Positions 12,055 to 31,878 are shown, counted from the first letter of the stretch. The stretch is DNA of 32,000 nucleotides from Nocardioidaceae bacterium (GCA_017744365.1 JAGIBL010000001.1:771416-803415), one strand, 5' to 3'. Made by a program: numbers and translations. Notes: generated by a model from the letters alone, not told the origin.

Positions 12055-12066
12055 GGCGGCGTCTTC

Positions 12067-13017: not shown

Positions 13018-13041
13018 CGAGCGCCTGCGCTCCTTCGCTGA

Positions 13042-13183: not shown

Positions 13184-13226
13184 TTCGGCCAATCGTCTCG
13201 GTAGTCGAGTCCGAAGGAGACACCCG

Positions 13227-16965: not shown

Positions 16966-17867
16966 TGACGGCGGCCGGTGAAAACATCGTGTTGACGAGT
17001 GAATTCGACGCTCCGTACGCCTACAGCGCGATCACCGAGCGGCCCCACCGGCCGTTCCCCGGGGGCGCCCGGGTGGCGGTCTGGGTCGGCGTCAACGTGG
17101 AGGCCTACGCCTTCGGCCAGCAGGCGCTCAGCGTCGCTCCGCACGGGCCGTTCATCCCGCCCGACGCGATGAGCTACTCCTGGCGCGACTACGGCAGCCG
17201 GGTCGGGATCTTCCGGATGCTCGAGGCGATGAACGCGGCCGGCATCCGCGGCAGCGCGATCACCAACGCCGAGGTGCTGCACCGGTACCCGCCGGTGGTC
17301 GAGGCGATCCGGGCCGCCGGGTGGGACTGGGTCGCGCACGGGCGCAACAACTCGATCCTGCAGACCTCGATGGACCCCGACGCCGAGCGCGCCTACGTCG
17401 CCGAGGTCACCGCGACCTTCACCGAGGTGCTCGGGCTGGCGCCGCGCGGCTGGCTGGGCCCGGCCCGGGTCGCCACCCTGGCCACCAACCAGCTGCTCGC
17501 CGACGCCGGCTACTCCTACGCGCTGGAGTGGAACTGCGACGACCAGCCCTTCGACTTCGACCTCGAGCGCGGCCGGCTCGTCTCGGTGCCCTACTCGACC
17601 GAGGTCAACGACATCATCGCGTTCGTCTTCCGTGGCTCCTCGGGCGCGGAGTTCCGGCAGCTGGTCCTCGACCACGTCGGCACCCTGCGCGCCCAGGGCG
17701 AGCGCTGGCCCTCGGTCCTCGGGCTCAGCGTGCATCCCTTCCTGTGCGGGCAGCCCGCGAAGCTGCCGTACCTGATGGAGGCGCTGGCCGAGGTGGCCGC
17801 GCACCCGGACGTGTGGATGACCACCAGCGACGAGATCGCCGCCTGGTACCGGGAGGAGGGCCGTTGA
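16965..17867 (+). CDS. Polysaccharide-deacetylase-fold protein, PuuE (allantoinase)-like subgroup, copy A
   Basis: It has a TGATG overlap with the permease. It carries YSWRDYGSRVGIFR, the WVAHGRNN, PRGWLGP and VHPFL motifs, and is a clear paralog of 28409..29305. Confidence 0.8.
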   Translation: MTAAGENIVLTSEFDAPYAYSAITERPHRPFPGGARVAVWVGVNVEAYAFGQQALSVAPHGPFIPPDAMSYSWRDYGSRVGIFRMLEAMNAAGIRGSAITNAEVLHRYPPVVEAIRAAGWDWVAHGRNNSILQTSMDPDAERAYVAEVTATFTEVLGLAPRGWLGPARVATLATNQLLADAGYSYALEWNCDDQPFDFDLERGRLVSVPYSTEVNDIIAFVFRGSSGAEFRQLVLDHVGTLRAQGERWPSVLGLSVHPFLCGQPAKLPYLMEALAEVAAHPDVWMTTSDEIAAWYREEGR

Positions 17868-18622
17868 GCGCCTCCTTCGCGGGCCGGCACGCGGTGGTCA
17901 CCGGGGCCGCCAGCGGCATCGGGCGCCGTACGGCGGAAGCACTCGCCGAGCGCGGCGCCACGGTGGCCTGCCTGGACCGCGACGGTGACCGGCTCGAGGA
18001 GGTGGTGGCCGCCCTGGGCGGCGCCGCCACCGGGCACGTCGCCGACGTGACCAGCTCGGCGCAGGTCGACGCCGCCTTCGACGCGGCCGCCGCCACCGCA
18101 TCGCTGGACCTGGTGGTCAACATCGCCGGCGCCGCCTTGATGGGCGCGGTGCACGAGCTCTCCGACGAGGACTGGGCCGACTGCCTGGGCCGGAACCTGA
18201 CCGGCACCTTCTACTGCTGTCGCGCCGCGGTCCGGCACCTCGGCGCGCGCGGCGGGGTGATCGTGAACATGTCGTCCTCGCTGGGCCGGATCGCCGCGCC
18301 GCGGTTCGCGGCCTACAGCGCGGCCAAGGCGGGCGTGCGCGCGCTGACCATGCAGATGGCCCGCGACTACGGCCCGGCGATCCGGGTGAACTCGGTCTCG
18401 CCGGCGGCCACCGACACCCCGGGCGTCCGGTACGCCATCGAGTCCGCTGCGGACCCGGCGGCGGTGGAGGCCGAGATCGCCGGCGGCAACCACATCGCCG
18501 GCCGGCTGGCCACCACCGACGAGGTGGTCGCCGGGATCCTCTTCGCCGCCTCGGCGGAGTCGTCGTTCATGTTCGGCCACGACCTGGTGCTCTGCGGCGG
18601 CCAGACCACGGTCGCGTACTGA
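17864..18622 (+). CDS. SDR-family oxidoreductase
   Basis: The TTG start follows SD GGGAGGAGGG (17851-17860) and overlaps the upstream stop. It has VTGAASGIG, the catalytic YSAAK and SVSPAATDTP. Confidence 0.85.
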   Translation: MSASFAGRHAVVTGAASGIGRRTAEALAERGATVACLDRDGDRLEEVVAALGGAATGHVADVTSSAQVDAAFDAAAATASLDLVVNIAGAALMGAVHELSDEDWADCLGRNLTGTFYCCRAAVRHLGARGGVIVNMSSSLGRIAAPRFAAYSAAKAGVRALTMQMARDYGPAIRVNSVSPAATDTPGVRYAIESAADPAAVEAEIAGGNHIAGRLATTDEVVAGILFAASAESSFMFGHDLVLCGGQTTVAY

Positions 18623-18644
18623 GTCGCGGACGGAGAGGGAAGAG

Positions 18645-19337
18645 ATGCCAGAACCCTGGGACCACCTACTCGGCGAGCGCGACCGGGCCGTCCTCGCGGC
18701 CAGTGGCTACGGGCAGTCCCGCAAGCTCCGGTCGCCGGCCGCGGTGCTGGTCATCGACCTGACGTTCGACTTCCTCGGCGACCGGCCGGAGCCGATCCTG
18801 GAGTCGGTCACCCGGTTCCCGAACAGCTGCGGCGCCGAGGGCTGGGCCGCGGCCGAGCGGCTCGCGCCGGTGCTGGCCGCGGCGCGCGCGAGCGACGTCC
18901 CGGTCCTGTACACCACCCGCAGCACCGAGCACCCGGTGCTGGAGGAGCTGACCTGGGGTGGCAAGCAGACCAACGCCGGCCGCGCGGCGATGGGGGAGAG
19001 CGCGGCGACCGGCTTCCCGCCCGCCATCGCGCCGCAGCCCGGCGACACCGTGATCGAGAAGACCAAGCCGAGCGCGTTCTTCGACACCCCGCTGCGGCAG
19101 TACCTGGTGCTGCTCGGGATCCGGCAGCTCTTCGTCGCCGGCGCCACCACCAGCGGCTGCGTGCGGGCCACCGTCGTGGACGCGTTCTCGCACGGGTTCC
19201 GCACCGCGGTGCTGGCCGACTGCGTCGCGGACCGGATCGAGGCCTCGCACGCGATCGCCCTGTTCGACCTGCAGGCCAAGTACGCCGACCTGACCGACGC
19301 GGCCACGGCGACCGGCGCGCTGGGGGAGGGCCGGTGA
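18645..19337 (+). CDS. Isochorismatase-like cysteine hydrolase, N-carbamoylsarcosine amidase / maleamate amidohydrolase-type (copy 1)
   Basis: The D-K-C triad context is VLVIDLTFDF, KTKPSAFF and GATTSGCVRATVVDA. Confidence 0.85.
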   Translation: MPEPWDHLLGERDRAVLAASGYGQSRKLRSPAAVLVIDLTFDFLGDRPEPILESVTRFPNSCGAEGWAAAERLAPVLAAARASDVPVLYTTRSTEHPVLEELTWGGKQTNAGRAAMGESAATGFPPAIAPQPGDTVIEKTKPSAFFDTPLRQYLVLLGIRQLFVAGATTSGCVRATVVDAFSHGFRTAVLADCVADRIEASHAIALFDLQAKYADLTDAATATGALGEGR

Positions 19338-20332
19338 GCTCCCTCGCGCTCAGCTACGGCGGCCTGCTCTACCTGGACCGGACCCTGCCGCTCTACCTCG
19401 ACCAGGTCCGCCCGGCCGGGATCGACCTGACCTACGTACCGTTCGACTCGCCCGGTGACCTGTTCCGGCGGCAGTGCCAGTACGCGCAGTTCGAGGTCTC
19501 CGAGCTCTCCGCCTCCAGCTACCTGGCGATGCTCAGCCGCGGCGACGACCGGTTCGTGGCGCTGCCGCTGCCGGTCTCCCGGAACTTCCGGCACAGCCAG
19601 GTCTACGTGCACACCGACGCCGGCATCGCCCGTCCCGAGGACCTGCGCGGCCGCCGCGTCGGCATCCTGGAGTACCAGATGACCGCGGCGCTGTGGATCC
19701 GCGGCTTCCTCGCCGACGACCACGGTGTCACCCCCGACCAGGTCGACTGGCACACCGGCGGCCTGGTCGAGCCGGCCTGGGCCGAGCGCCTCGAGCTGGA
19801 CCTTCCCGAGGGGGTGCGGCTGACGCCGATCCCGGCCGGGGCGACGCTGGAGGCGATGCTCGAGGCCGGCGAGCTGGACGCGCTGGTCACCGTGCAGCCG
19901 CCGCAGCGCTTCGGCCAGGTGCCGCAGCTGCGCCGGCTCTTCGAGGACGCGACCGCGGTCGAGCGCGACTACCACCGGCGCACCGGGATCTTCCCGATCA
20001 TGCACCTGGTCGTCGTACGGCGTGACGTCTACGAGCGGCACCGCTGGGTGGCGCTCGCGCTCTACGAGGCCTTCGCGCGGGCCAAGGCGCAGGGGATGGG
20101 GCGGCTGCGCGCGATCACGGGCCTGGCCGTCGGGCTGCCCTTCCTGGCCGCCGCCCTCGCCGAGGTCGACGAGGCCTTCGCCGGCGACGCCTTCCCGTAC
20201 GGCGTCGAGCCGAACCGGCTCACGCTGCAGAAGCTGAGCGACTACGCCTTCGAGCAGGGCATCGCGGCCCGCCGGGTGCCGGTCGAGGAGATGTTCGCCC
20301 CCGAGACCTACCAGGAGCCGATCGCCCTATGA
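19334..20332 (+). CDS. PhtD-like protein (family annotated as 4,5-dihydroxyphthalate decarboxylase; cytosolic periplasmic-binding-protein fold)
   Basis: It has a GTGA overlap and no signal peptide. It carries the motifs FEVSELSASSYL, FVALPLPVSRNFRHSQVYV, LRGRRVGILEYQMTAALWIRG and IFPIMH. Confidence 0.7.
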   Translation: MSSLALSYGGLLYLDRTLPLYLDQVRPAGIDLTYVPFDSPGDLFRRQCQYAQFEVSELSASSYLAMLSRGDDRFVALPLPVSRNFRHSQVYVHTDAGIARPEDLRGRRVGILEYQMTAALWIRGFLADDHGVTPDQVDWHTGGLVEPAWAERLELDLPEGVRLTPIPAGATLEAMLEAGELDALVTVQPPQRFGQVPQLRRLFEDATAVERDYHRRTGIFPIMHLVVVRRDVYERHRWVALALYEAFARAKAQGMGRLRAITGLAVGLPFLAAALAEVDEAFAGDAFPYGVEPNRLTLQKLSDYAFEQGIAARRVPVEEMFAPETYQEPIAL

Positions 20333-21897
20333 GCACGCGCAAGCCGCGGATCGCCGTCGTCGCCGGTCCGACCGCGACGATCCTGAACACCCCGCCGCTC
20401 GTGGCCGGCCCGCTGCGCCCGCAACGGCTCGGCGCCGCGACGACGGTGTGGGTCGAGCACCTGAGCGCGCACCCGATGGAGAGCGACCTCGGCGCCCGGC
20501 AGGCCGGACCCGACGGCTACCTGACCGAGGACGGCTCGGTCAGCCCCGAGCGGACCGCCGAGACCGACGTCGCGGTGGTCGCGGTCAGGCTCGACGCCGG
20601 CGCGCTCTACCCGCTGCCGTACACCCCGCGCCCGGCCGACGGCTGGGAGCCGGGCGGCTGGGACGACCCGCGGCAGACGTTCTTCCCGGACGCCTCCCGG
20701 GCCTACGAGGAGATCGACGCGCTGGTCGAGATGGACGGCCGCGACGGCACCCTGAGCGCCCTGGCCGACTTCGTGCACGTCCGGGTGCTGCCCTCGGCCG
20801 GGCGGACCAGCCCGCCGGACTGCGAGCGCCTCGGCCACGACTACTTCCCGTACTGGCCGCCGCACCGCCGCGGCGAGCCCGACCGCGGCGCCCTGGCCCG
20901 GCTGACCAACGAGCTCGGCGCCCTGCTGGCCGGAGGCGAGGTGGACGCGGTCCAGTACCTCGAGGGCAGCGCCAGCATCGAGGAGTCGCTGTACTGGCTG
21001 GCGCTCACCCTCGACACCGACCGGCCCGTCGTCGGGCACTGCGCCCAGGTGCCGCACCAGGCGCTCGGCTCGGACGGCCCGCGCAACATCGTCGACGGCG
21101 TCCTGTACGTCGCCTCCGGTGCCGCGCTCGACGAGGACGGCCGCGACCGGGTCGGCCCGGTGCTGGTCGCCGACGGCCAGGTCTTCGCCGCCCGCGAGGT
21201 GGCCAAGACCGACGGCCGGTACGGCGGCTACCGCGCGACCGGCGGACTCGGCGGCGTGGTCGGAGCCGTGCACAGCTACCGCGGCGTGCACGTGGACCAC
21301 CTCAGCACCCGGCGGCACACCCGGACCTCCGAGCTGACCGTCGCCCGCCTGCCCGCGCAGGTGCGCCACGTGCACGGCCGGCTCGCGACCGGCCTGCGGG
21401 TCGGCACCACGACCGTGAAGGACGCGGCCGGACGGCTGCGCGAGGACGCGGTGCCGTCCGTGCTGGTGCACAAGTACGGCCGCTACACCGGCGATGCCGG
21501 CACCGACTCGGCCCGCGAGCGGGCGGCGCTGTGGGGCTGGATCGAGGCCTACCTGGACGGCGCCACCCGGCCGCTGGGCATCGTGCTGGAGGGCAACCCG
21601 TCGTACGGGCACGCCGACCCGTGGGAGGAGGCTGTGCTCACCACCGCCCTGCACGCCGGCGTCCCGGTGGTGCGCGCCGGGCGTGGCAACGGGTCCGGCT
21701 TCGTGCGGATCCCGCCGATGCCGTTCGCGGCGGCCAGCAACCTGACCGCGGCCAAGGCCCGGATCCTGCTGACCGCGGCGCTGCTCAAGCTGGGCTCGCT
21801 GGAGCCGGCGGCCGACCCGCGGAACCCGACCGAGGCCGAGCGGCAGCGCACCGCCGACCAGCTCGCCGCCTACCAGGAGCTCTTCGATGAGCACTGA
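20329..21897 (+). CDS. Divergent, enlarged asparaginase/glutaminase-fold protein (522 aa)
   Basis: It has an ATGA overlap. The blocks run in the same order as type II asparaginase: RIAVVAGPTATI, YLEGSASIEESLYWLALTLDTDRPVV, LGSDGPRNIVDGV, REVAKTD, GIVLEGNPSYG and NLTAAKARILLTAAL. Confidence 0.75.
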   Translation: MSTRKPRIAVVAGPTATILNTPPLVAGPLRPQRLGAATTVWVEHLSAHPMESDLGARQAGPDGYLTEDGSVSPERTAETDVAVVAVRLDAGALYPLPYTPRPADGWEPGGWDDPRQTFFPDASRAYEEIDALVEMDGRDGTLSALADFVHVRVLPSAGRTSPPDCERLGHDYFPYWPPHRRGEPDRGALARLTNELGALLAGGEVDAVQYLEGSASIEESLYWLALTLDTDRPVVGHCAQVPHQALGSDGPRNIVDGVLYVASGAALDEDGRDRVGPVLVADGQVFAAREVAKTDGRYGGYRATGGLGGVVGAVHSYRGVHVDHLSTRRHTRTSELTVARLPAQVRHVHGRLATGLRVGTTTVKDAAGRLREDAVPSVLVHKYGRYTGDAGTDSARERAALWGWIEAYLDGATRPLGIVLEGNPSYGHADPWEEAVLTTALHAGVPVVRAGRGNGSGFVRIPPMPFAAASNLTAAKARILLTAALLKLGSLEPAADPRNPTEAERQRTADQLAAYQELFDEH

Positions 21898-21928: not shown

Positions 21929-22474
21929 TCAGCCGGCCTCTTCGTCGCGGACCCGCTCGGCGAACTCCAGGGACACCTCGAGGCGGGAGAGCAGGGTGGC
22001 CAGCTGCTGCTGCTCGGAGGCGGTCAGCCCGCCGAGCATCTTGTTCTGCTCGGCGAAGTGCCGCTCGACGACGAAGTCGATGCGCTGGTGGCCGGCCTTG
22101 GTGAGCTGGACGTAGACGATCCGGCGGTCCTTGGGGTCGCGCACCCGCTCGACCAGGCCGTCGCGCTCGAGCCGGTCGATGCGCTGGGTCAGGCCGCCGG
22201 TGCTGATGAGCCCGACCTGGGCGAGCTGCCCGGCGGTTCGGCGGTAGTCGGGGGCGCTGCGGCGCAGCGAGGCGAGCACGTCGAAGGCCGCCATGGTCAG
22301 GTCGAACTCGGCAAGCACCTCGCTGACCAGGCCGCTGTAGCGGATGTCGCAGCGGTGCAGCCGGCCGAGCACGCCGATGCTGCTCACGTCGAGCGCGGGA
22401 GCCTCCCGGTTCCACTGCTCGATGATCATGTCGACCAGGTCCGTCGGACGTCGGTGCGAGGTCTTCGGCGCCAT
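21929..22474 (-). CDS. MarR-family transcriptional regulator
   Basis: The winged-helix core is AGQLAQVGLISTGGLTQRIDRLERDGLVERVRDPKDRRIVYVQLT. ATG 22474 lies about 5 nt after GGGAG. An alternative start is GTG 22480, as in the ORF track. Confidence 0.9.
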   Translation of the reverse strand: MAPKTSHRRPTDLVDMIIEQWNREAPALDVSSIGVLGRLHRCDIRYSGLVSEVLAEFDLTMAAFDVLASLRRSAPDYRRTAGQLAQVGLISTGGLTQRIDRLERDGLVERVRDPKDRRIVYVQLTKAGHQRIDFVVERHFAEQNKMLGGLTASEQQQLATLLSRLEVSLEFAERVRDEEAG

Positions 22475-22513
22475 CTCCACTCCCTCAGCTCTAAGTATTC
22501 AACGATGAGGATA

Positions 22514-22531
22514 GTCGCACGCTCGTGCGAC
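22514..22531. promoter_or_regulatory. Perfect inverted repeat GTCGCACG-CT-CGTGCGAC in the marR/permease divergent region
   Basis: I read it directly: 8-bp arms and a 2-nt spacer, 40 nt upstream of marR ATG 22474. Confidence 0.35.
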
Positions 22532-22588
22532 CGCTCACGCCCGATGCTTCGGGACAACGGAATTCCCACAGGGATCGATGGTTCCCCC

Positions 22589-22605
22589 AGTTGCTTCGAC
22601 CTAAG
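22589..22605 (+). promoter_or_regulatory. Conserved 17-nt box AGTTGCTTCGACCTAAG (copy 1)
   Basis: It matches 24832-24848 at 15 of 17 positions. It ends 31 nt before ATG 22636. Confidence 0.4.
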
Positions 22606-22635
22606 AGTTGGAGACCGACGAGTTGGAGGTTGGGC

Positions 22636-23433
22636 ATGAGCATCGACACCCGCAGGCTGGCACGGCGGGCGACCCAGGTGGGCAAGCCGCTGGCGCTGTT
22701 CACGGTGCTGGTCGCGATCTGGCAGGTCGTCGTCGACAAGGGCCTGGTCCCGACCGTCGCCCTCGCCTCGCCGAGCGAGGTCCTCGACTACATCGTCACC
22801 CAGCGCGCCCAGTTGTGGACCAACAGCCAGGCCACGATCAAGGAGATCGTGCTGGCCTTCGCGATCGCCTTCGTGGTGGGCGTGGTGCTGGCCATCCTCA
22901 TCAAGGAGTTCCAGATCCTGCACGACGCGCTGCTGCCGCTGCTGGTGGTCACCCAGCTGGTGCCGTCGGTCGCGATCGCGCCGCTGCTGGTGCTGATCCT
23001 CGGCTTCGGCGACGCTCCCAAGATCGCGACCGCGGCGGTGATCGCGTTCTTCCCGATCCTCATCAACACCGTCGCCGGGCTGGACAACGTGGAGAAGGAG
23101 GCGATCGACCTCACCCGCAGCCTGCGCGCCTCCCGGATCCAGACGCTGCGCTACCTCGAGCTGCCCTCGGCGATCCCCTACATGTTCGCCGGCACCCGGA
23201 TCGGCATCACCCTCAGCGTGATCGGCGCGGTCGTCGGCGAGTTCGTCACCGCCGACAAGGGCCTGGGCTACCTGATCCTGCAGGGCAGCTCGACGCTGGA
23301 CCCCACCCTCGTCTTCGCCTCGCTGGTGGTGCTGGCCGGGATCGGGCTGCTGCTCTTCGGTGCCGTCCGGGTCGTGGAGTACTTCGTCGTCCCGTGGAAC
23401 CGGGCCCCGGCCCAGCGAGGAGGCCGGTCATGA
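22636..23433 (+). CDS. NitT/TauT-family ABC transporter permease
   Basis: ATG 22636 lies 6 nt after GGAGG (22625-22629). The 265-aa protein is a multi-spanning BPD-type membrane protein. The upstream 37 codons of the track ORF lie in AT-rich non-coding DNA. Confidence 0.9.
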   Translation: MSIDTRRLARRATQVGKPLALFTVLVAIWQVVVDKGLVPTVALASPSEVLDYIVTQRAQLWTNSQATIKEIVLAFAIAFVVGVVLAILIKEFQILHDALLPLLVVTQLVPSVAIAPLLVLILGFGDAPKIATAAVIAFFPILINTVAGLDNVEKEAIDLTRSLRASRIQTLRYLELPSAIPYMFAGTRIGITLSVIGAVVGEFVTADKGLGYLILQGSSTLDPTLVFASLVVLAGIGLLLFGAVRVVEYFVVPWNRAPAQRGGRS

Positions 23434-24212
23434 GCGCGCTCATCTCGATCACCGGCGTGGCCAAGCGCTACGCCACCGACCGCGGCGAGGTGGTCGCGGT
23501 CCAGGACGTCGACCTCGAGGTGCGGCAGGGCTCGTTCGTCGCGCTGCTCGGGCCGAGCGGCTGCGGGAAGAGCACGCTGCTGCGGATGGTGGCCGGCCTC
23601 GACGCGCCGAGCGAGGGCCGGATCCTGCTCGACGGCCAGGACGTGGTGGCGCCGACGGCGATGGTCGGCTTCATGTTCCAGCACTCGCTGCTGTTCCCGT
23701 GGCGCTCGGTGATCGAGAACGTGCTGCTGCCGGTCGACATAGCCCGGGGCAAGCGGGCCGAGCACCTGGACCGCGCGCACGCGCTGCTGGCCAGCGTCGG
23801 CCTGGAGGAGTTCGCCCACCACCGCCCGAACGAGCTCTCCGGCGGCATGCAGCAGCGGGCGGCGCTGTGCCGGGCGCTGATCGTCGACCCGCCGGTGCTG
23901 CTGCTCGACGAGCCCTTCGGCGCGCTGGACAGCATCACCCGCGAGGAGCTCAACGACCTGCTGCTGCAGATCTGTCACGAGTCGGGGAAGACCACGCTGC
24001 TGGTCACCCACGACGTCGAGGAGGCCGTCTACCTGGCCGACGAGGTGGTGGTGATGTCGAGCCGGCCCGGGCGGATCTCCGACGTCGTCGGCGTCGAGCT
24101 CGGCTATCCCCGCGACACCGAGACCCGCAACCTGCCCGAGTTCCGGGCGCTGGCGACCCGGCTGCGCAAGGGGCTGGGGATCGCGCACCGGCAGGGGAGG
24201 GCGGCCCGGTGA
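23430..24212 (+). CDS. NitT/TauT-family ABC transporter ATP-binding protein
   Basis: It has an ATGA overlap. It carries GPSGCGKST, LSGGMQQRAALCRAL and LLLDEPFGALD. Confidence 0.9.
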   Translation: MSALISITGVAKRYATDRGEVVAVQDVDLEVRQGSFVALLGPSGCGKSTLLRMVAGLDAPSEGRILLDGQDVVAPTAMVGFMFQHSLLFPWRSVIENVLLPVDIARGKRAEHLDRAHALLASVGLEEFAHHRPNELSGGMQQRAALCRALIVDPPVLLLDEPFGALDSITREELNDLLLQICHESGKTTLLVTHDVEEAVYLADEVVVMSSRPGRISDVVGVELGYPRDTETRNLPEFRALATRLRKGLGIAHRQGRAAR

Positions 24213-24832
24213 CGGAGGCCCTCGTCCCGGCCAGGACCGCGCTGGTGATCGTGGACATGCAGAACGACTTCCTGCATCCCGACGGGGCGCACGGACGCGC
24301 CGGCCTCGACATCGGCGCGGGCCTGGCGCTGCTGCCGGCGCTCAACGACTTCGTCGCGCAGTGCCGCCGGGTGGGCGTGCTCCCGATCTACCTGCAGGAG
24401 GTGCTGACCCGGCACACCAGCATGGCCAACCTGGTCGCGCAGTGGGGCCGCTGGGACACCCTCGTGGTCGAGGGCACCTGGGGCGCGCAGCTGCACGACG
24501 ACCTGGTCCCGCGCGAGCCGGACGAGCCGCTGGTGGTGAAGAGCAACTACGACGGCTTCCAGGACACCGTGCTCGACCTGGTGCTCAAGGCGCACGGGAT
24601 CAGCACGCTGCTCTTCGCCGGCGTCGGCACCAACGTGTGCGTGGAGACGACCGCCCGGCACGCCTACGGGCTGGGCTACCGGGTGGTGACCCTGGAGGAC
24701 CTCTGCGCCGCCTCCAGCGTGCCCGAGCACGAGGCCGCGATCTGGAACCTGGGCACCTACTTCGGCGAGGTACGGCGCAGCGCCGAGATCGTCGCGGACT
24801 GGGCCTTGACACCTCAAGTGACTCATCTCTAA
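24209..24832 (+). CDS. Isochorismatase-like cysteine hydrolase (copy 2, general PncA/RutB/BiuH-like type)
   Basis: It has a GTGA overlap. The D-K-C triad context is LVIVDMQNDF, VVKSNYDGF and GVGTNVCVETTARHA. It ends in TAA, which lies inside the TCTAAG motif. Confidence 0.85.
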   Translation: MTEALVPARTALVIVDMQNDFLHPDGAHGRAGLDIGAGLALLPALNDFVAQCRRVGVLPIYLQEVLTRHTSMANLVAQWGRWDTLVVEGTWGAQLHDDLVPREPDEPLVVKSNYDGFQDTVLDLVLKAHGISTLLFAGVGTNVCVETTARHAYGLGYRVVTLEDLCAASSVPEHEAAIWNLGTYFGEVRRSAEIVADWALTPQVTHL

Positions 24833-24835
24833 GTT
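24806..24835 (+). promoter_or_regulatory. Internal promoter candidate inside module B (TTGACA, 18 nt, TAAGTT)
   Basis: GCCTTGACAC is identical to the 10-mer at 13153-13162. The -10-like TAAGTT at 24830-24835 includes the TAA stop of the upstream gene. Confidence 0.4.
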
Positions 24836-24848
24836 GTTTAGACCTAAG
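24832..24848 (+). promoter_or_regulatory. Conserved 17-nt box AGTTGTTTAGACCTAAG (copy 2)
   Basis: It matches 22589-22605 at 15 of 17 positions. It ends 31 nt before GTG 24879. Confidence 0.4.
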
Positions 24849-24878
24849 TAATTCTCCGAACGAACGAGGGTGACAAGC

Positions 24879-25520
24879 GTGGATCTCATCAAGTCGACCG
24901 TCCTCCCCGAGGGCGCCGAGGAGCTGCAGTCGCTGCACATCGCGGCGCGGGGGCACGTGGCGTTCACGATGCGGGCAGGCAACGTGGTCCGGATCGTCGA
25001 CGTCGAGGGCCAGCAGGTCGCCGACCTGGTCGCCTTCAACCAGACCGACCACACCGAGCGGCTCAACGGCGAGACGACGATGCTGCTCAACGGGACCTAC
25101 AACCCGCGCGAGGGTCACGTGGTCTACAGCGACGACTGCAACCCGATGTTCACGATCATCGACGACAAGGTCGGCCGCAACTACCCGGGCGCACTGATGT
25201 GCTCCCAGGAGATGAACCTGATCCGCTACGGCATCCCGGGCACCGTCAACTGCCGCGACAACCTCACCGACGCGCTGCGTCCCTGGGGGATCGGCATGAA
25301 GGACATCCCCGGCGCCTTCACGCCGTTCATGAACGTGATCCACCACCCCGACGGCCGCGCCGAGATCGCCGAGCCGCCCTCGGCCGCCGGGGACCACATC
25401 GACCTGCGCGCGGAGATGGACCTCCTGGTCGCGATCAGTGCCTGCCCGCAGGAGCGCAACCCGGTCAACGGCTGGAAGCCCAGCTCGCTCGACGTCGTCG
25501 TCTACCACCAGGAGTCCTGA
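24879..25520 (+). CDS. DUF1989 (urea-carboxylase-associated / carboxyguanidine-deiminase family) protein
   Basis: It has VRIVDVEGQQVADLVAF, DHIDLRAEMDLLVAISACPQ and the family-typical C-terminus. GTG 24879 lies 8 nt after GAGGG. An alternative start is GTG 24870, as in the ORF track. Confidence 0.8.
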   Translation: MDLIKSTVLPEGAEELQSLHIAARGHVAFTMRAGNVVRIVDVEGQQVADLVAFNQTDHTERLNGETTMLLNGTYNPREGHVVYSDDCNPMFTIIDDKVGRNYPGALMCSQEMNLIRYGIPGTVNCRDNLTDALRPWGIGMKDIPGAFTPFMNVIHHPDGRAEIAEPPSAAGDHIDLRAEMDLLVAISACPQERNPVNGWKPSSLDVVVYHQES

Positions 25521-26509
25521 TGAAGAGTCCACGGTCACCCCGCCCGCGCTGGTACCTCGTCGCCGCCCTCGCGGCACTCGGGCTCGCGGTCACCGCCTGC
25601 GGTAGCAGCGATCCAGGAGCGAGCGGCAAGGCCGGCAGCACCTCGATCAACTTCAGCCTCGGGTACGGCGCGGACAGCCTGTTCGCCCCGATGTACTACG
25701 CCGAGGGCAAGGGCCTCTACGAGGCCGAGGGCCTCCAGGTGCGCATCCAGCCCAGCGGCGGCACCGCGCAGGTGCTGACCCGGATCGAGGCCGGCCAGGC
25801 CCAGCTGGGCGTCGCCGACTCCAGCTCGGTGATCAAGGCGATCGCCGACCAGGACACCCCCGTGATCATCATCGCGGTGCTGCTCGACCACAGCCCGTCG
25901 GTGACCGCCACCCAGAAGTCCTCCGGCATCACCGACATCGCCGGCCTCAAGGGCAAGAGCCTCGGCGACTCGCCGGCCGGCGGCATGTGGCAGCGCACCC
26001 CGGCCCTCCTCGGCGCCAACGGCCTCACCGTCGCGGACATCAAGCGGGTGCCGATCAACCAGGGCGTGAACTCGGCGCTGCTGGCCGGCAAGGTGGACGC
26101 GGTCAACAACTACGCCGAGACGTTCGCCGGTTCCGCGGACAAGCTGAACCTGATCCCGTGGTTCGAGCAGGGCGTCGACCCGGTCGGTGACGTGCTCATC
26201 GTCAACAAGGACTGGGCGAAGAAGAACCCCGACGCGGTCCGGGCGTTCGTGAAGGCGACCATGACCGGCCTGCAGAAGTCGATCGCCGACCCGGCCACCG
26301 CCGCCGAGGTGCTGGCCAAGGCCGCGCAGTCGACGGATCCGGGCTACTTCAGCGACGGCATCGAGCTGCTCGAGCCGTTCTGGACGACCAGCGGCACCAC
26401 CACCTCCGAGCGCTGGGCCGCGACCCAGGAGCTGAACGTGAAGTACCTCGGGCAGACCAAGACGCTGACCGAGGACCAGATCTTCACCGCGGAGTACCTG
26501 CCGAAGTGA
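25520..26509 (+). CDS. NMT1/THI5-like ABC substrate-binding lipoprotein (NitT/TauT family)
   Basis: It has a TGATG overlap and a signal peptide with lipobox-like AVTAC. The type II PBP pattern includes INFSLGYGADSLFAPMYYA and LKGKSLG. Confidence 0.85.
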   Translation: MKSPRSPRPRWYLVAALAALGLAVTACGSSDPGASGKAGSTSINFSLGYGADSLFAPMYYAEGKGLYEAEGLQVRIQPSGGTAQVLTRIEAGQAQLGVADSSSVIKAIADQDTPVIIIAVLLDHSPSVTATQKSSGITDIAGLKGKSLGDSPAGGMWQRTPALLGANGLTVADIKRVPINQGVNSALLAGKVDAVNNYAETFAGSADKLNLIPWFEQGVDPVGDVLIVNKDWAKKNPDAVRAFVKATMTGLQKSIADPATAAEVLAKAAQSTDPGYFSDGIELLEPFWTTSGTTTSERWAATQELNVKYLGQTKTLTEDQIFTAEYLPK

Positions 26510-27732
26510 CCCTGCTCCGCCACGTCCGCCCGTGGGGCGGCGACCCGGTCGACCTCGAGCTCGAGGCCGGCCGGATCGCCGCCGTCGGGCCGCACCAGCC
26601 CTCCCGGGAGCATCCCGGCGATGACATCGACGGGCGCGGCCGGATCGTGGTGCCGGCCTTCACCGACGCCCATGCGCACCTGGACTCCTCGCTGCTCGGG
26701 CTGCCGTTCCGGCCACACACCGGTGGCCCGGCGATCTGGGACATGGTGCTCAACGACCGCGAGCACTGGCGGGACCCGGCCTGGTCGGTGACCGAGCGGG
26801 CGTCGTACACGCTCGGGCTGATGGTTGCGCACGGCGTGACCCGGGTGCGCACCTACGCGCAGATCGACGTGGACTGCCGGTTGGAGCGCTTCGAGGCGGT
26901 GCAGGCCGCGGTCGCCGAGCACCGCGATCGGTGCGACGCGGTGGTGATCGCCTGCCCTCAGGCCGGGCTGCTCCGCGAACCGGGTGTCGTCGAGCTGATG
27001 GAGGAGGCGCTGCGCCAGGGCGCCGACGTGGTCGGCGGCATCGACCCGAGCATGCTCGACCGCGACCCGGTACGGCACCTCGACGTCGTCTTCGGCCTGG
27101 CCGAGCGATACCAGGTGCCGGTCGACATCCACCTGCACGAGCCCGGGCACCTCGGGGTCTGGACCCTCGGCCTGATCCTGGAGCGGACTCGCGCGCTGGG
27201 GATGCAGGGCCGGGTCACCCTGGCGCACGGCTACGGGCTCGGCGGCGTCGACGCGGCCACCACCGCGCGCCTGGTCGAGGAGCTCGCCGAGCTCGACGTG
27301 GCGATGTCGACGGTCGCGCCGCCCCAGGCGGGCACGGCGCTGCCGCTGCTCGACCTGACCGCCGCCGGCGTGCGGGTCGGGCTCGGCCAGGACGGCCAGC
27401 GCGACTTCTGGACGCCGTACGGCAACGGCGACATGCTCGACCGCACCTGGCAGCTCGCCTTCACCCACGACTTCCGCGACGACGCCCTCCTCGAGCACTG
27501 CCTGGCGGTGGCGACCGTCGGGGGAGCGAGCCTGCTCGACCCGTTGTCGCCGCGCATCGGTGCGCCAGGCAGCCGGTCCGGGGTCGAAGTCGGCGATCCC
27601 GCGGACCTGCTCGTCGTCGACGGCGAGTGCGTCGCCCAGGTCGTGATGGACCGGCCGCGCGACCGGACCGTCCTCAAGGCCGGGGTCGTCGTCGCCGACG
27701 GCCTCGTGCTTCGAAACCACCAACCCGTCTAG
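26506..27732 (+). CDS. Amidohydrolase-superfamily enzyme, cytosine-deaminase-like
   Basis: It has a GTGA overlap. The metal-ligand pattern is FTDAHAHLD, VDIHLHE, VTLAHG and GLGQDGQRD, as in CodA / creatinine deaminase / AtzC relatives. Confidence 0.8.
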   Translation: MTLLRHVRPWGGDPVDLELEAGRIAAVGPHQPSREHPGDDIDGRGRIVVPAFTDAHAHLDSSLLGLPFRPHTGGPAIWDMVLNDREHWRDPAWSVTERASYTLGLMVAHGVTRVRTYAQIDVDCRLERFEAVQAAVAEHRDRCDAVVIACPQAGLLREPGVVELMEEALRQGADVVGGIDPSMLDRDPVRHLDVVFGLAERYQVPVDIHLHEPGHLGVWTLGLILERTRALGMQGRVTLAHGYGLGGVDAATTARLVEELAELDVAMSTVAPPQAGTALPLLDLTAAGVRVGLGQDGQRDFWTPYGNGDMLDRTWQLAFTHDFRDDALLEHCLAVATVGGASLLDPLSPRIGAPGSRSGVEVGDPADLLVVDGECVAQVVMDRPRDRTVLKAGVVVADGLVLRNHQPV

Positions 27733-27743
27733 GAGGAACACCC

Positions 27744-28412
27744 GTGAGTGACGACAGCGCCGAGAGCGCGGATCTCGAGTTCTTCGCCGAGCGCGGCTTC
27801 GGAGTGCCGCTCGGCTTCGGCGACCGGCCCGCGGTGGTCGTGGTCGACCTCATCCGCGGCTTCACCGACCCGACCTGGCCGCTCGGCTCGGACCTGACCG
27901 GCCAGCTGGCGGCGACCTCGGCGCTGCTCGACGCCGCCCACGAGGCCGGGCACCCGGTCTTCCTCACCACCGTCCGGTACGACGACCCGGAGCTGCGCGA
28001 CGCCGGCGTGTGGGGCCTGAAGATGAAGGGCGCCTCCTCGCTGATGGCGGGCACCGGTGGCTCCGACATCGACGAGAGGCTGCCGGTGGTGCCGACCGAC
28101 GTGGTGATCGTCAAGAAGTACGCGTCCTCGTTCTTCGGCACCGACCTGGCCTCCCGGCTGGTCAGCCAGGGCGTCGACACCGTGGTCATCACCGGGGCGA
28201 CCACCAGCGGCTGCGTGCGCGCGACCGCGGTCGACGCCGTCCAGCTCGGGTTCCGGCCCGTCGTCGTACGGGAAGGGGTGGGGGACCGCTCCGCGCGCTC
28301 CCACGAGCAGAGCCTGTTCGACCTGAGCCAGAAGTACGCCGACGTGGTCGGCCTCGACGAGGCCGTCAGTGCCCTCGAGGAACGGGCGCTGCAGGAGAGG
28401 ACGCGGTCATGA
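27744..28412 (+). CDS. Isochorismatase-like cysteine hydrolase, N-carbamoylsarcosine amidase / maleamate amidohydrolase-type (copy 3)
   Basis: SD AGGAGG at 27731-27736 lies 7 nt before the GTG. It has VVVVDLIRGF, VKKYASSFF and GATTSGCVRATAVDA. Confidence 0.85.
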   Translation: MSDDSAESADLEFFAERGFGVPLGFGDRPAVVVVDLIRGFTDPTWPLGSDLTGQLAATSALLDAAHEAGHPVFLTTVRYDDPELRDAGVWGLKMKGASSLMAGTGGSDIDERLPVVPTDVVIVKKYASSFFGTDLASRLVSQGVDTVVITGATTSGCVRATAVDAVQLGFRPVVVREGVGDRSARSHEQSLFDLSQKYADVVGLDEAVSALEERALQERTRS

Positions 28413-29305
28413 GCACGACCCCGCGCGAGCACGACCGCTACGACTACTCCGCGATCGTGGACCGGCCGCGGCTGACCTGGCCCGGCGGCGCCCGGGTCGC
28501 GGTCTGGGTGGTCCCGAACGTCGAGCACTTCCTCTTCGACCGGCCCTCGACGGCGAACACCGCGTTCACGATGGGCCTCTCTCCCGACGTGCTCAACTAC
28601 TCCTGGCGCGACTACGGCGCCCGGGTGGGCTTCTTCCGGATGGCCGAGGTGCTCGAGCGGCACGGCTTCCCGGCCACGGTCGCGCTCAACTCCGACGCCT
28701 GCGAGCGGTACCCGCGGATCATCGAGGAGGGCCGGCGGCTCGGCTGGGAGTGGATGGGCCACGGCACCACCAACTCGCTGCTGGTCGACTACGAGGACGA
28801 GGACGAGGAGCGCGCCTTCGTCGAGGAGGTGCTGAGCACCATCGGCGAGGCCACCGGCACCCGGCCGCGCGGCTGGCTGAGCCCGGCGCTGAGCGAGACC
28901 AACCGGACCCTCGACCTGCTCGCCGAGGCCGGCGTCGACTACACCGGCAACTGGGTCAACGACGAGCAGCCCTACGAGATGCGCGTGACGAGCGGCCGGA
29001 TGCTGGCGCTGCCGTACTCGCAGGAGATCAACGACATCCCGGCGATGCTGGAGCACAAGAAGTCCGGCGAGCAGTTCGGGCAGATGATCCGGGACACCTT
29101 CGACGTGCTCTACGAGGACGGCGCGCGCAGCGGCCGGGTGATGGCGATCTGCGTGCACCCGTTCCTCATCGGGCACCCGCACCGCAGCAAGTACTTCGAG
29201 CAGGCGCTCGCGCACATCGCCGCCCACGACGAGGTCTGGCTGGCCACCGGCAGCCAGATCGCCGACCACTACCGCGCGCAGGTCGCGCAGACGGAGACCC
29301 CGTGA
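28409..29305 (+). CDS. Polysaccharide-deacetylase-fold protein, PuuE (allantoinase)-like subgroup, copy B
   Basis: It has an ATGA overlap. It carries YSWRDYGARVGFFR, WMGHGTTN, PRGWLSP and VHPFLIGHP, and is a paralog of 16965..17867. Confidence 0.8.
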   Translation: MSTTPREHDRYDYSAIVDRPRLTWPGGARVAVWVVPNVEHFLFDRPSTANTAFTMGLSPDVLNYSWRDYGARVGFFRMAEVLERHGFPATVALNSDACERYPRIIEEGRRLGWEWMGHGTTNSLLVDYEDEDEERAFVEEVLSTIGEATGTRPRGWLSPALSETNRTLDLLAEAGVDYTGNWVNDEQPYEMRVTSGRMLALPYSQEINDIPAMLEHKKSGEQFGQMIRDTFDVLYEDGARSGRVMAICVHPFLIGHPHRSKYFEQALAHIAAHDEVWLATGSQIADHYRAQVAQTETP

Positions 29306-29979
29306 GTACGACGACCACCGAGGACGCGACCCTGCGCGAGGAGCTCGCGCTGGCGTGCCGGATCCTCGACGAGCGCGGCCTGACCGAGGCCTACGGGCAC
29401 GTCAGCGCCCGGCTCGACGAGCGGACCATGCTGATCTCGCCACGGGTCGGGCCGGGGGTGGCCGCCTCGGACGCGTTCGTGGTGATGACGCTGGACGGGG
29501 AGCACCTCGGCGGCGGCAGCATCCCGATCGAGTGGCACATCCACGGCTCGGTCTACGCCGCCCGGCCGGACGTCCGCGCGATCATGCGGACGCACTCCTT
29601 CGAGGCCAGCGTGCTGTCGATGGTCGGGGAGCCGGTCCGTACCGCGCACTACCTGGGCAGCCTGGCCGGCGCGGGCGCCCGGGTGCACGAGGTGCCCGAC
29701 CTCATCACCGACGCCGACCGCGGCGCGCACCTGGCCGTCGCCCTGGGGGAGGACAGCGCGCTGCTGCTGCGCGGCAACGGCCAGGTGGTCGTCGGCACGT
29801 CGGTCCCCGAGGCCTGCGTGCGGGCGCTGTACCTGGACGAGGCCGCCCGCCTCCAGCGGGCCGCGCTCAGCACCGGCCGCGACCTGCTCGCCTACACCGC
29901 AGCCGAGGTCGAGCGCTTCGCCCCGACCTGGGCCGACCAGGTCAACATCGACCGCGCCTGGGGCTACTACGCCCGTTGA
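29302..29979 (+). CDS. Class II aldolase/adducin-fold protein (aldolase or decarboxylase)
   Basis: It has a GTGA overlap. It carries EAYGHVSAR and the EWHIHGSVYAARPDVRAIMRTHS pattern (E plus three His zinc ligands). Confidence 0.8.
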   Translation: MSTTTTEDATLREELALACRILDERGLTEAYGHVSARLDERTMLISPRVGPGVAASDAFVVMTLDGEHLGGGSIPIEWHIHGSVYAARPDVRAIMRTHSFEASVLSMVGEPVRTAHYLGSLAGAGARVHEVPDLITDADRGAHLAVALGEDSALLLRGNGQVVVGTSVPEACVRALYLDEAARLQRAALSTGRDLLAYTAAEVERFAPTWADQVNIDRAWGYYAR

Positions 29980-30038
29980 GTAGTCACCCCGTCTCCGTTG
30001 AGTAGTCGCCTCGGCACCCTCGAGCAGTCACTTCGTCC
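29973..30038. repeat. Three tandem 22-bp units (core CCnTyGAGyAGTC) straddling the stop codon of the aldolase-fold gene
   Basis: Unit 1 is ccgttgagtagtcaccccgtct, unit 2 is ccgttgagtagtcgcctcggca and unit 3 is ccctcgagcagtcacttcgtcc. Units 1 and 2 match at 18/22 with a perfect 13-mer. Units 1 and 3 match at 16/22. Confidence 0.6.
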
Positions 30039-30181: not shown

Positions 30182-31282
30182 ATGCAGCAGGTGAAGGCCG
30201 TCGTGGCCCTGGAGCGCGGCAAGCCCGTCGAGGTCGTGACCATCAACGTGCCGGACCCGGGTCCGGGCGAGGCGGTCGTGAAGGTGCAGGCCTGCGGGGT
30301 CTGCCACACCGACTTGCACTACCGCGAGGGCGGCATCAACGACGACTTCCCGTTCCTCCTCGGCCACGAGGCCGCGGGCATCGTCGAGGCCGTCGGTCCC
30401 GACGTGACCGGGGTGGCGCCGGGCGACTTCGTGGTGCTCAACTGGCGCGCGGTCTGCGGCGAGTGCCGGGCCTGCAAGCGCGGCGACCTGCAGTACTGCT
30501 TCAACACCCACAACGCGACGCAGCGGATGACGCTCGAGGACGGCACCGAGCTGTCGCCGGCGCTGGGCATCGGGGCGTTCGCTGAGAAGACGCTGGTCGC
30601 CGCCGGGCAGTGCACCAAGGTGGACCCCTCGGCCCGGCCCGCCGCCGCCGGCCTGCTCGGTTGCGGGGTGATGGCGGGCATCGGCGCGGCGATCAACACC
30701 GGCGCCGTACGACGGGGGCGGTCCGTCGCGGTGATCGGCTGCGGCGGTGTCGGGGTGGCCGCGATCGCCGGGTCCGCGCTGGTCGGGGCGAGCCCGATCA
30801 TCGCGGTCGACATCGACGCCAAGAAGCTCGAGACCGCCCGCCGGATGGGGGCGACGCACACGGTCGATTCCTCGCAGACCGACCCGGTGGAGGAGATCAA
30901 GCGCATCTGCGCCACGGTGTACGACGGTGCCGACGGCGCGGACGTGGTGGTCGAGGCGGTCGGCCGTCCGGAGACGTGGAAGCAGGCGTTCTACGCTCGC
31001 GACCTGGCCGGCACCGTGGTCCTGGTCGGGGTGCCCACCCCGGACATGAAGATCCCGGACCTGCCGCTGATCGACGTGTTCGGCCGTGGCGGCGCGCTCA
31101 AGTCCAGCTGGTACGGCGACTGCCTGCCCTCCCGCGACTTCCCGATGCTCGTCGACCTGTACCTCCAGGGCCGGCTGGACCTGGACGCCTTCGTCAGCGA
31201 GGAGATCGGCATCGGCGACGTCGAGGCGGCCTTCGAGCGGATGCATGGCGGCGACGTGCTGCGCAGCGTGGTGGTCCTGTGA
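30182..31282 (+). CDS. mscR: S-(hydroxymethyl)mycothiol dehydrogenase (class III Zn alcohol dehydrogenase)
   Basis: The N-terminus [50 protein letters not shown] is the characteristic signature. It has the structural-zinc [15 protein letters not shown] and GCGGVG. SD GGGGAGGAGAG lies upstream. Confidence 0.85.
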
Positions 31283-31878
31283 GGGATCGTGTCGACCACG
31301 GCGTCACCCGCGGCACCTTCAGCCTGGACGGGCAGACCTTCGACGTCGAGAACAACGTCTGGGTGGTCGGCGACGACACCGAGTGCGTGGTGATCGACGC
31401 CCCGCACGACGTCGACGCGATCCTCGCGGTGGTGGGGGACCGGCGGGTCAAGGCGATCGTGTGCACGCACGCCCACGACGACCACGTCCGGGTCGCGCCG
31501 GCGCTGCGGGAGAAGGTGGTCGCGCCGATCCTGCTGCACCCGGACGACCGGCCGCTGTGGGAGCTCACCCACCCCGACTACCTCTGGGACCTGGACCTGG
31601 AGGACGGGCTGGTGATCGAGGTCGGCCGGACCACCCTGCGGGTGCTGCACACCCCGGGCCACGCGCCCGGCGCGGTCTGCCTGTACGCGGAGGACCTGGG
31701 CTGCGTCTTCACCGGGGACACCTTGTTCCACGGCGGTCCGGGCGCGACCGGGCGGTCGTACTCGGACGCCGACCTCATCGTGGCGTCGATCAAGGAGAAG
31801 CTCTTCGCGCTGCCGGACGAGACCGTCGTGCACACCGGTCACGGCGAGGACACCACCATCGGCGCGGAACGCTTCTAG
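31279..31878 (+). CDS. MBL-fold hydrolase, glyoxalase-II-like, the usual partner of mscR
   Basis: It has a GTGA overlap. It carries CTHAHDDHV (HxHxDH), HTPGHAPG and HTGHG. Confidence 0.85.

Follow-up and report, generated by a model that had tools for sequence, protein, structure and literature searches.

A probable operon of C-N hydrolases assembled from four separable modules in an uncultured soil actinobacterium

A 32,000-nt stretch of the metagenome-assembled genome (MAG) of a Nocardioidaceae bacterium, an uncultured soil actinobacterium (GCA_017744365.1, JAGIBL010000001.1:771416-803415; hereafter the window), carries a block of nine genes, G1 to G9, which probably constitutes one genuine operon and encodes a NitT/TauT-type importer together with a set of predicted C-N hydrolases (Table 1). 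The operon came together in this lineage out of four modules, each of which is found apart elsewhere: an alpha module, in which the importer (G5, G1 and G2) is joined by the DUF1989 protein G4, with its Zn-Cys3 site, and by the aldolase-fold protein G9 of an 'ERHN' subfamily; a beta module pairing the PuuE-branch C-N hydrolase G8 with the PatE/NicF-type Cys hydrolase G7; a gamma module, the AtzC/CodA-type deaminase G6; and a delta module, the RutB/BiuH-type Cys hydrolase G3. All of its enzymes come from known superfamilies, and neither curated families nor the searchable literature yielded a characterised equivalent of the operon; its most interesting parts, drawn more narrowly than an earlier note on this DNA had claimed, are the transporter-embedded DUF1989 subfamily, its ERHN partner, and the conserved pair of a PuuE-branch hydrolase and an isochorismatase-like hydrolase (IHL). 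We propose, with a probability of roughly 0.45, that the operon serves to take up a small cyclic amidine or imide, probably a carboxylated one, and to free its nitrogen as ammonia through hydrolysis that needs neither ATP nor redox cofactors.

A coupled gene block and its modules in other genomes

Because the whole stretch has a GC content of ~72%, genes were placed by the phase of third-codon-position GC (GC3) and not from raw open reading frame lists. GC3 lies at ~0.92-1.00 in nine successive plus-strand coding segments (~22,560-29,979), and start and stop analysis gave the bounds of G1 to G9, with exact block ends at 22636 and 29979, confirming the nine coupled plus-strand genes that the earlier note had described. 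Five junctions (G1/2, G2/3, G5/6, G7/8 and G8/9) are 4-nt overlaps and one (G4/5) is a 1-nt overlap; the other two are short gaps carrying ribosome-binding sites, of 37 nt at G3/4 and of 11 nt, holding AGGAGG, at G6/7. The upstream operon also has start/stop overlaps, at 19334/19337 and 20329/20332, so that coupling alone is not remarkable in a genome of 72% GC; it is the overlaps taken together with the short gaps and with a gene order kept in a close relative that point to a single operon. All nine proteins have Pfam matches (E-values from 4e-10 to 2e-48), and every family call of the earlier note was right, with TIGR03212 serving for the PuuE-like protein. Its expectation that no characterised cluster has this gene set also held: no NCBIfam equivalog (orthologue) cutoff was reached, and literature searches covering DUF1989, IHL, N-methylhydantoin, maleamate, phthalimide and PuuE topics returned no such cluster.

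Table 1. Predicted genes, operons and non-coding features of the window
Feature	Coordinates	Strand	Assignment	Match or basis
G1	22636-23433	+	NitT/TauT-type ABC permease	BPD_transp_1, 2.4e-30
G2	23430-24212	+	ABC importer ATPase	ABC_tran, 2.3e-35
G3	24209-24832	+	RutB/BiuH-like isochorismatase-family Cys hydrolase	Isochorismatase, 7.6e-43
G4	24870-25520	+	Lone DUF1989 protein with Zn-Cys3 site	DUF1989, 2.2e-48
G5	25520-26509	+	NMT1-type lipoprotein binding protein	NMT1, 8.5e-39
G6	26506-27732	+	AtzC/CodA-like amidohydrolase (hydrolytic deaminase)	Amidohydro_1/3
G7	27744-28412	+	Cys hydrolase of the PatE/NicF/CSHase clade	Isochorismatase (Pfam)
G8	28409-29305	+	PuuE-branch polysaccharide-deacetylase-fold hydrolase (ring/amide C-N)	Polysacc_deac_1
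G9	29302-29979	+	Class II aldolase/adducin-fold protein, 'ERHN' subfamily (remodelled metal site)	Aldolase_II, 4.1e-29
Regulator	21929-22480	-	MarR family, divergent from G1	Pfam MarR_2/MarR
Palindrome	22514-22531		Perfect 8+2+8 palindrome GTCGCACG-CT-CGTGCGAC in the 155-nt MarR/G1 intergenic region	Inverted-repeat search and direct reading
15-nt repeats	22598-22627		Two tandem copies, GACCTAAGAGTTGGA and GACCGACGAGTTGGA	
22-nt repeats	29973-30038		Three tandem copies, CCGTTGAGTAGTCACCCCGTCT and variants at 82% and 73% identity	
Module A (upstream operon)	13056-21897	+	Sugar-type ABC importer, second PuuE-like protein, short-chain dehydrogenase/reductase (SDR), third IHL, decarboxylase homologue, asparaginase-like protein	
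Second PuuE-like paralogue	16980-17867	+	PuuE-like protein of module A	TIGR03212, 109 bits
Third IHL	18660-19337	+	IHL of module A	
Decarboxylase homologue	19334-20332	+	4,5-dihydroxyphthalate-decarboxylase homologue, 332 aa	PDB 9jp7, 245 bits, E 1e-71
Asparaginase-like protein	20329-21897	+	Asparaginase-like protein, 522 aa	Pfam Asparaginase_N
Divergent operon	9470-13044	-	Rieske/VanA_C oxygenase, carboxymuconolactone decarboxylase (CMD)-like protein, SDR, FNR/Fer2 reductase	
Downstream pair	30182-31878	+	S-(hydroxymethyl)mycothiol dehydrogenase, then GloB-like metallo-beta-lactamase-fold hydrolase	653 bits against an equivalog cutoff of 513 (dehydrogenase)
Left end of the window	1-9055		Apparently unrelated genes	

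Comparison loci carry L-numbers, with L099 standing for a close relative and L006/L007 for a second genome, and two anchored sets were used: 80 loci around G4-type genes, with one genome per species (a scan confirmed 235 stretches encoding relatives), and 80 loci around G6-type genes from metagenomes. Beyond the source, the full block is found in L099 only, where G4 to G9 stand in the same order at 78-94% identity and where the block also stops at G9, the next gene being on the opposite strand. In the G4-anchored set the transporter is present at roughly half of the loci, a G7-like gene at one, and G3, G6 and G8 at none; in the G6-anchored set there is one G8-like match (30%) and no G3, G4, G7 or G9. 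The idea that the nine genes form a conserved pathway unit did not survive this comparison. What neighbourhood analysis did return is recurring sub-modules, namely alpha, beta and G1-G2-G3.

G4-type genes are embedded in ABC operons in L015-L017 and L019-L021. The alpha order, binding protein-permease-DUF1989-ATPase-ERHN aldolase, is found in L017, L020 and L021, and the unit occurs without the aldolase in Blastococcus (L015, GCA_054050575.1), in L016 and in Pusillimonas. In Pusillimonas caeni KCTC 42353, a betaproteobacterium (L019 10001-10636), the G4 homologue is 80% identical to an actinobacterial one, whereas the transporter genes of the binding protein/permease/DUF1989/ATPase unit are just 36-48% identical, which suggests a recent cross-phylum transfer of the DUF1989 gene.

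The beta pair recurs, 58-68% identical, in an Acidobacteriota MAG and at L008, where it lies directly behind the extradiol dioxygenase genes LigB-LigA of a protocatechuate-dioxygenase-type operon, and it has 45-53% identical counterparts in pht-type plasmid clusters of Microbacterium and Gordonia. The G8 family is 65-72% identical across phyla, its orthologues pairing with IHLs or amidases; G8-like genes are accompanied by an amidase in Aminobacter, while in Inquilinus and Ensifer their one companion is a LysR regulator. The gamma module is more solitary still: at 53-70% identity the G6 family consists of stand-alone genes in Actinobacteria, and the closest homologues, common in cultured Streptomyces, Arthrobacter and Kribbella, have only a regulator (GntR or AraC) and a transporter beside them. 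Across the 80 G6-anchored loci the only recurrent partners are GntR regulators and MFS or Opp-type transporters, and these give no clue to the substrate. As to delta, G1-G2-G3 are common to L006 at 59-65% identity, the G3 homologue there (59%) coming after the transporter.

Enzyme families and catalytic residues

The importer is of a recognisable type: an NMT1/SsuA-type binding protein with a lipoprotein signal (G5, lipobox ...LAVTA-C27), a BPD_transp_1 permease and an ABC_tran ATPase are encoded together. The best NCBIfam neighbours are SaoP, TauC and SsuC for G1 and SaoA/TauB for G2, the former all under cutoff and the latter under the equivalog cutoffs; G1 is 64% identical to the permease of L006, and G2 42-43% identical to the ATPases of phthalate ABC-transporter operons from Rhodococcus RHA1 (patDABC) and Arthrobacter keyseri. 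As for the enzymes that this importer would feed, alignment and sequence reading show intact catalytic residue sets in five hydrolases of the operon.

Within the beta module, G8 scores 148.5 bits against the PuuE family TIGR03212, short of the allantoinase cutoff of 424.6, while PuuE structures align to it over its full length at 106-120 bits. It has the N-x-E and single-His motifs of PuuE, a metal-independent allantoinase of the deacetylase fold, and not the D-x-D/HxxxH metal triad of CE4 enzymes, the aligned G8/PuuE motifs being VVPNVEH/VLNYEE, MGHG/CSHG and, for the C-terminal H...IG.P motif, VHPFLIGHP/LHCRLIGRP. Unlike PuuE, it is missing the insertion after the N-x-E-E motif, and urate-oxidation genes (HIU hydrolase, OHCU decarboxylase) are absent both from the window and from the ten G8-homologue contexts inspected. 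HpPgdA (3qbu), which represents the clade of cyclic imide hydrolase (CIH), HxnM and HpPgdA with its Asp-His-His zinc site, matches G8 with 51 bits only and in two partial stretches; G8 shows no close similarity to that clade, and on this indirect evidence we rejected it as an orthologue of the characterised CIH, to whose relative HpPgdA it is less near than to PuuE.

Its partner G7 has an intact D34/K124/C157 triad in alignments to NicF, a maleamate amidase, and to PDB entry 26st. The latter is the best structural match (215 bits), ahead of NicF (162 bits for 4l07, and 130-162 bits across the NicF structures) and of Arthrobacter N-carbamoylsarcosine amidohydrolase (CSHase; 1nba, 126 bits). Although 26st itself is named "N-carbamoylsarcosine amidohydrolase", we reject that name at face value: the protein traces to a plasmid gene of Rhodococcus (RHA1, opacus, DK17) that sits directly after the phthalate transporter genes patDABC. 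In Rhodococcus jostii RHA1 this gene lies on pRHL2 (L102 9950-10615) and its product is 55% identical to G7; a 77% identical homologue of the 26st-type gene follows ptrDABC in A. keyseri, and homologues so labelled are encoded in phthalate clusters not only of A. keyseri but also of Microbacterium and Gordonia. A 2026 review table lists RHA1 PatE, without an alpha/beta-hydrolase class, as a characterised monoalkyl-phthalate monoesterase (PMC13040137). From the gene position and this table, the 26st series is very probably PatE (ABG99214), the CSHase name being an annotation label, and the nearest characterised relative of G7 is not a bona fide CSHase. The CSHase reading of G7 in the earlier note rests on this label and is not supported. 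More generally, genes and PDB entries that bear the name and belong to phthalate clusters of actinobacteria very probably stand for enzymes hydrolysing half-esters or half-amides, and pathway inference from the label is unsafe. The nearest relatives of G7, PatE and NicF, have as substrates half-esters or half-amides that derive from ortho- or cis-dicarboxylates.

Two known systems resemble this arrangement. The lower nicotinate pathway, with the N-formylmaleamate deformylase NicD and the amidase NicF, likewise has two C-N hydrolyses that end in an IHL acting on a cis-dicarboxylate half-amide; NicF has the same triad as G7, and the L008 pair directly follows an extradiol dioxygenase. It differs in that its first hydrolase has an alpha/beta hydrolase fold and not the PuuE/deacetylase fold, and the window is without a NicX-type dioxygenase or a maleate isomerase. 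In the phthalate clusters (patDABC-patE and pad/pht of R. jostii RHA1; ptr/pht of A. keyseri pRE1), an IHL with 54-55% identity to G7 comes behind a NitT/TauT importer, class II aldolase-fold decarboxylases are present, and the pht-type clusters of Microbacterium and Gordonia contain G8-like plus G7-like pairs; the island around the operon has, besides a homologue of 4,5-dihydroxyphthalate decarboxylase, a Rieske oxygenase of class IA type with a reductase. Characterised phthalate clusters, however, have no AtzC-like deaminase, DUF1989 protein or RutB-like IHL, their PhtC/PadC proteins keep an HxH...H site that G9 has lost, and the oxygenase of the window matches no curated phthalate dioxygenase family.

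The alpha enzymes G4 and G9 are further removed from anything characterised. By score G4 is neither UAAP2 (143.6 bits against a cutoff of 284.7) nor UAAP1 (110.7 against 205.95). Its residues C111, C128 and C192, invariant in 25 subfamily members, match the three Zn-binding cysteines described as a feature of the DUF1989 family (PMC12560246). The characterised members of that family are the carboxyguanidine deiminase CgdAB (PMC11271267) and the trimethylamine N-oxide demethylase Tdm, with which G4 shares fold and cysteines, and it sits with a NitT/TauT transporter as urea-carboxylase-associated DUF1989 genes do. Yet G4 is single where CgdAB is a heteromeric pair, it has no GcvT domain, and neither urea carboxylase nor allophanate hydrolase is encoded in the window. 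Its recurrent partners are different ones, too: an ABC importer, the ERHN aldolase-fold protein and a molybdenum hydroxylase. Unbiased clustering of the neighbours of 84 G4-type genes recovered an ABC ATPase at 37 loci and an NMT1 binding protein at 29. At 20 (L040, L047, L056, L077 and 16 others) the large subunit of a molybdenum hydroxylase (Ald_Xan_dh_C, MoCoBD_1, MoCoBD_2) is encoded within 6 kb, directly adjacent to or overlapping the G4-type gene in four; the large-subunit gene of L040 (671-3672) is an overlapping one. A urea-carboxylase-like protein is not among the 16 most frequent neighbour clusters. We know of no earlier report of a linkage between DUF1989 and molybdenum hydroxylases. 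The typical substrates of the latter are N-heteroaromatics, and through this association the DUF1989 subfamily is linked with imported compounds such as these enzymes hydroxylate.

In G9 the canonical HxH...H site reads R96-x-H98...N159, so that two of the three metal-binding histidines are lost, whereas E77, the equivalent of the catalytic Glu, is kept (for FucA we take the ligand positions to be H92, H94, H155 and E73). HxH...H is present in Mlr6791, a decarboxylase of a vitamin B6 pathway, in the aldolase 8ix6, in FucA, and in every PhtC/PadC-like gene of the compared loci. Judged by this site, which is that of FucA, HMPDC decarboxylase and PhtC, G9 does not qualify as a canonical class II aldolase or decarboxylase; the decarboxylases that the earlier note cited for this fold use the histidines that it lacks. 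The 'ERHN' signature is shared by the orthologues in L099, L017, L020 and L021 and by 50 of the 150 nearest 50%-identity cluster representatives in a library of 1.8 billion proteins, which marks a coherent remodelled subfamily and not a decayed copy. From their recurrent association, G4 and G9 may be functional partners.

G6 has the complete HxH/H/H/D plus Glu set of its superfamily (H56, H58, H209, H211, E212, H241 and D296; invariant in 20 family members). It shares fold, metal and catalytic residues with AtzC and CodA, and would like them displace an exocyclic amino group hydrolytically, but its scores stay below orthologue level: 398.2 bits for the generic subfamily PRK05985 (cutoff 408), and 92 bits, against a cutoff of 403, for the CodA equivalog PRK07583. 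Among structures it matches PDB 6nbo at 245 bits, AtzC at 142-147 and CodA at 79-107, and 6nbo, its closest solved relative, bears a name only. G3, whose D16/K111/C144 triad reads as intact, is likewise no equivalog of RutB (106.5 bits against 377.95) or of BiuH (83 against 370); it also matches the biuret hydrolase structure 6xjm.

Proposed nitrogen release and competing explanations

In light of these assignments, we propose that the substrate is an N-heterocycle or else a cis- or ortho-dicarboxylic acid in its imide or amidine form, and that its uptake by the importer is followed by deamination through G6, which would turn an exocyclic amidine (amino or imino) group into the oxo form, an imide or lactam, and free NH3. 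G8 would then open the ring to a half-amide, which G7 would cleave to the dicarboxylate and a further NH3, with G3 possibly taking a second amide or ureido group; G4 and G9 may act jointly on another C-N function of the imported compound, and the carbon skeleton would pass to a Rieske oxygenase, a dehydrogenase and a protein like 4,5-dihydroxyphthalate decarboxylase, all encoded nearby. By context, a dicarboxylic imide of the phthalimide or maleimide type or an amino- or hydroxy-N-heteroaromatic acid fits best, though the likelihood of any one substrate is far below that of the scheme as a whole. The logic of deamination, ring opening and Cys-hydrolase cleavage, which the earlier note had put forward, is consistent with the intact G6 metal and catalytic set and with the G3 and G7 triads; of the single stepwise pathway in which that note had placed it, the family chemistry still fits, but the gene set splits into modules beyond one close relative. 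If the scheme is true, it would supply first functions for three widespread groups of uncharacterised enzymes, the transporter-embedded DUF1989 subfamily, the 'ERHN' aldolase-fold subfamily and the PuuE-branch hydrolase family, and it would describe a purely hydrolytic, ATP-independent recovery of nitrogen from cyclic amidines and imides by soil bacteria, with pesticide-derived imides such as phthalimide, as well as natural N-heterocycles, as candidate substrates.

Several points weigh against this proposal. It names a substrate class and no single substrate, and none of the enzymes of the block reaches an NCBIfam equivalog cutoff. The role of G8 as an imidase is a proposal for a protein that, from its sequence, is nearer to PuuE than to the characterised CIH/HxnM/HpPgdA type, and its orthologue in L006 has no G7 partner within the 15.2 kb of that locus. 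The very probable identity of 26st with PatE draws on gene position and the review table, not on an accession; the case for co-transcription of G1 to G9 consists of the gene overlaps; and no ring-cleavage dioxygenase or protocatechuate genes are found in the window. Finally, modules distributed so independently would fit equally well with several unrelated hydrolases behind one promoter.

We regard a bolder combination as rather unlikely, namely that G4 and G9 form a new two-component C-N-cleaving enzyme and that G8 and G7 at the same time provide a new ATP-independent route through cyclic imides or ureides and half-amides. The G4/G9 enzyme would in that case be dedicated to the substrate of the NitT/TauT importer, a hydroxylated or deaminated N-heterocycle, and with G8-G7 would make up an undescribed hydrolytic pathway mineralising nitrogen heterocycles.

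A serious alternative, because the modules occur so independently, is that there is no single pathway at all and that the operon is a co-regulated nitrogen-scavenging toolbox, in which unrelated hydrolases share one MarR-controlled promoter and one importer. Every module is also found alone elsewhere, G6 with just a regulator and a transporter, G8 with a LysR regulator in Inquilinus and Ensifer, and the DUF1989/ABC unit in Blastococcus, and the full block is confined to a single close relative. On the other hand, tight translational coupling spans the module boundaries G5/G6 and G8/G9, L099 keeps the order at 78-94% identity, five to six enzymes are served by one importer, and the same families repeatedly co-localise with module A and Rieske genes in the second genome. 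We consider the toolbox less likely than the proposed scheme.

More doubtful is an ATP-independent creatinine or hydantoin route, in which G6 would convert creatinine or another cyclic amidine to N-methylhydantoin, G8 would open the ring, and G7 would yield sarcosine, CO2 and NH3. The route is sound as chemistry, and its order is that of the known pathway of creatinine deaminase, N-methylhydantoin amidohydrolase and CSHase, to the superfamilies of whose first and last enzymes G6 and G7 belong: the CodA family is known to include bifunctional creatinine deaminases, and G7 does match the Arthrobacter CSHase 1nba (126 bits). G8, moreover, lies in the PuuE branch with its N-x-E and single-His motifs, PuuE opening the hydantoin ring of allantoin, and a mycothiol-dependent formaldehyde dehydrogenase encoded 202 nt downstream would suit sarcosine demethylation. 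The ring opener, however, would be non-homologous to the ATP-dependent known one, and CSHase is a more distant match of G7 than either the IHL of the phthalate clusters (215 bits) or NicF (162), the 'CSHase' names being annotation labels on genes within phthalate operons. Sarcosine oxidase or dehydrogenase, creatinase and glycine-cleavage genes, and with them any sarcosine utilisation, are missing from the window, and the formaldehyde dehydrogenase is not behind G9 in L099. G6 homologues stand alone in 80 loci, and the G7-G8 pair sits in aromatic-acid clusters (pht-type, LigAB) and not in hydantoin or creatinine ones. The route is improbable.

More improbable still is a route through s-triazines, urea oligomers or guanidines, in which G6 would deaminate an ammelide-like compound, G8 would open the ring in the stead of AtzD, and the IHLs (BiuH/TrtA/GuuH-like) and DUF1989 protein (CgdAB-like) would cleave carboxybiuret, biuret and guanylurea-type products: AtzC proteins are the best named structural relatives of G6 (147-245 bits), G3 matches BiuH and 6xjm, carboxyguanidine deiminase is a DUF1989 member, and NitT/TauT transporters accompany DUF1989 genes, but all scores, those for BiuH and UAAP2 among them, are far under their orthologue cutoffs, AtzD/barbiturase, allophanate hydrolase, urea carboxylase and a second DUF1989 subunit are absent from the window, the common DUF1989 neighbour is the molybdenum hydroxylase (20 of 84 loci) with no urea-carboxylase-like protein in the top 16 clusters, and the G7-G8 contexts are aromatic-acid clusters.

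The wider island and non-coding features

The block, 'module B' in the earlier note, is not self-contained. In L006/L007, orthologues of G8 (82%), G1, G2, G3 and G5 are interleaved with those of module A (51-70% identity) and of the Rieske oxygenase, and the block looks in consequence like one operon of a ~20-kb island (9470-29979). The Rieske/VanA_C oxygenase of the divergent operon is 58% identical to the one beside the corresponding transporter in L006, the CMD-like protein has 167 aa with a carboxymuconolactone-decarboxylase-like region, and the FNR/Fer2 reductase is DmmA-like. Neither oxygenase nor reductase matches a curated family or equivalog, phthalate dioxygenase included, and 'phthalate dioxygenase' is therefore not claimed. 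Within module A, the 332-aa decarboxylase homologue has no Pfam or NCBIfam match and no signal peptide, and its gene overlaps both neighbours by 4 nt. The Asparaginase_N match of the 522-aa protein covers residues 191-295 only, leaving a long N-terminal region without a family match; a 56% identical orthologue is encoded in L006.

The second PuuE-like paralogue, missed by Pfam, is ~41-43% identical to G8-type proteins, and side-by-side pairs of PuuE-like paralogues are also found in Burkholderia plantarii (L012) and Arthrobacter crystallopoietes (L013). A triad of a PuuE-like protein, an unknown protein of ~330 aa and an asparaginase, taken from L013, was withdrawn: the 'hypothetical' protein of that locus is a second PuuE paralogue, and its asparaginase has no match to that of the window at at least 50% coverage.

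The divergent MarR-family protein is the probable repressor of the operon, and in L016 and L085, too, DUF1989/ABC units have a homologue of it (41-45% identity) at their side. The perfect palindrome between regulator and G1 is a candidate operator. Scans for promoters and terminators are uninformative at 72% GC: promoter-like sites were not found, and terminator-like sites, 2 against 1.3 expected by chance, did not exceed the number that chance would give. The tandem 15-nt repeats lie just 5' of the G1 start and overlap its ribosome-binding site, and the three tandem 22-nt repeats begin at the G9 stop codon. Beyond them, the mycothiol dehydrogenase and GloB-like genes, which overlap by 4 nt, make up a mycothiol-dependent formaldehyde-detoxification pair. 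The left end of the window encodes branched-chain-type ABC transporter components, a metallo-beta-lactamase-fold protein, an Abhydrolase_3 esterase, two MmyB-like regulators, an aldo/keto reductase, the Dak1 and Dak2 dihydroxyacetone kinase subunits and a BKACE beta-keto acid cleavage enzyme.

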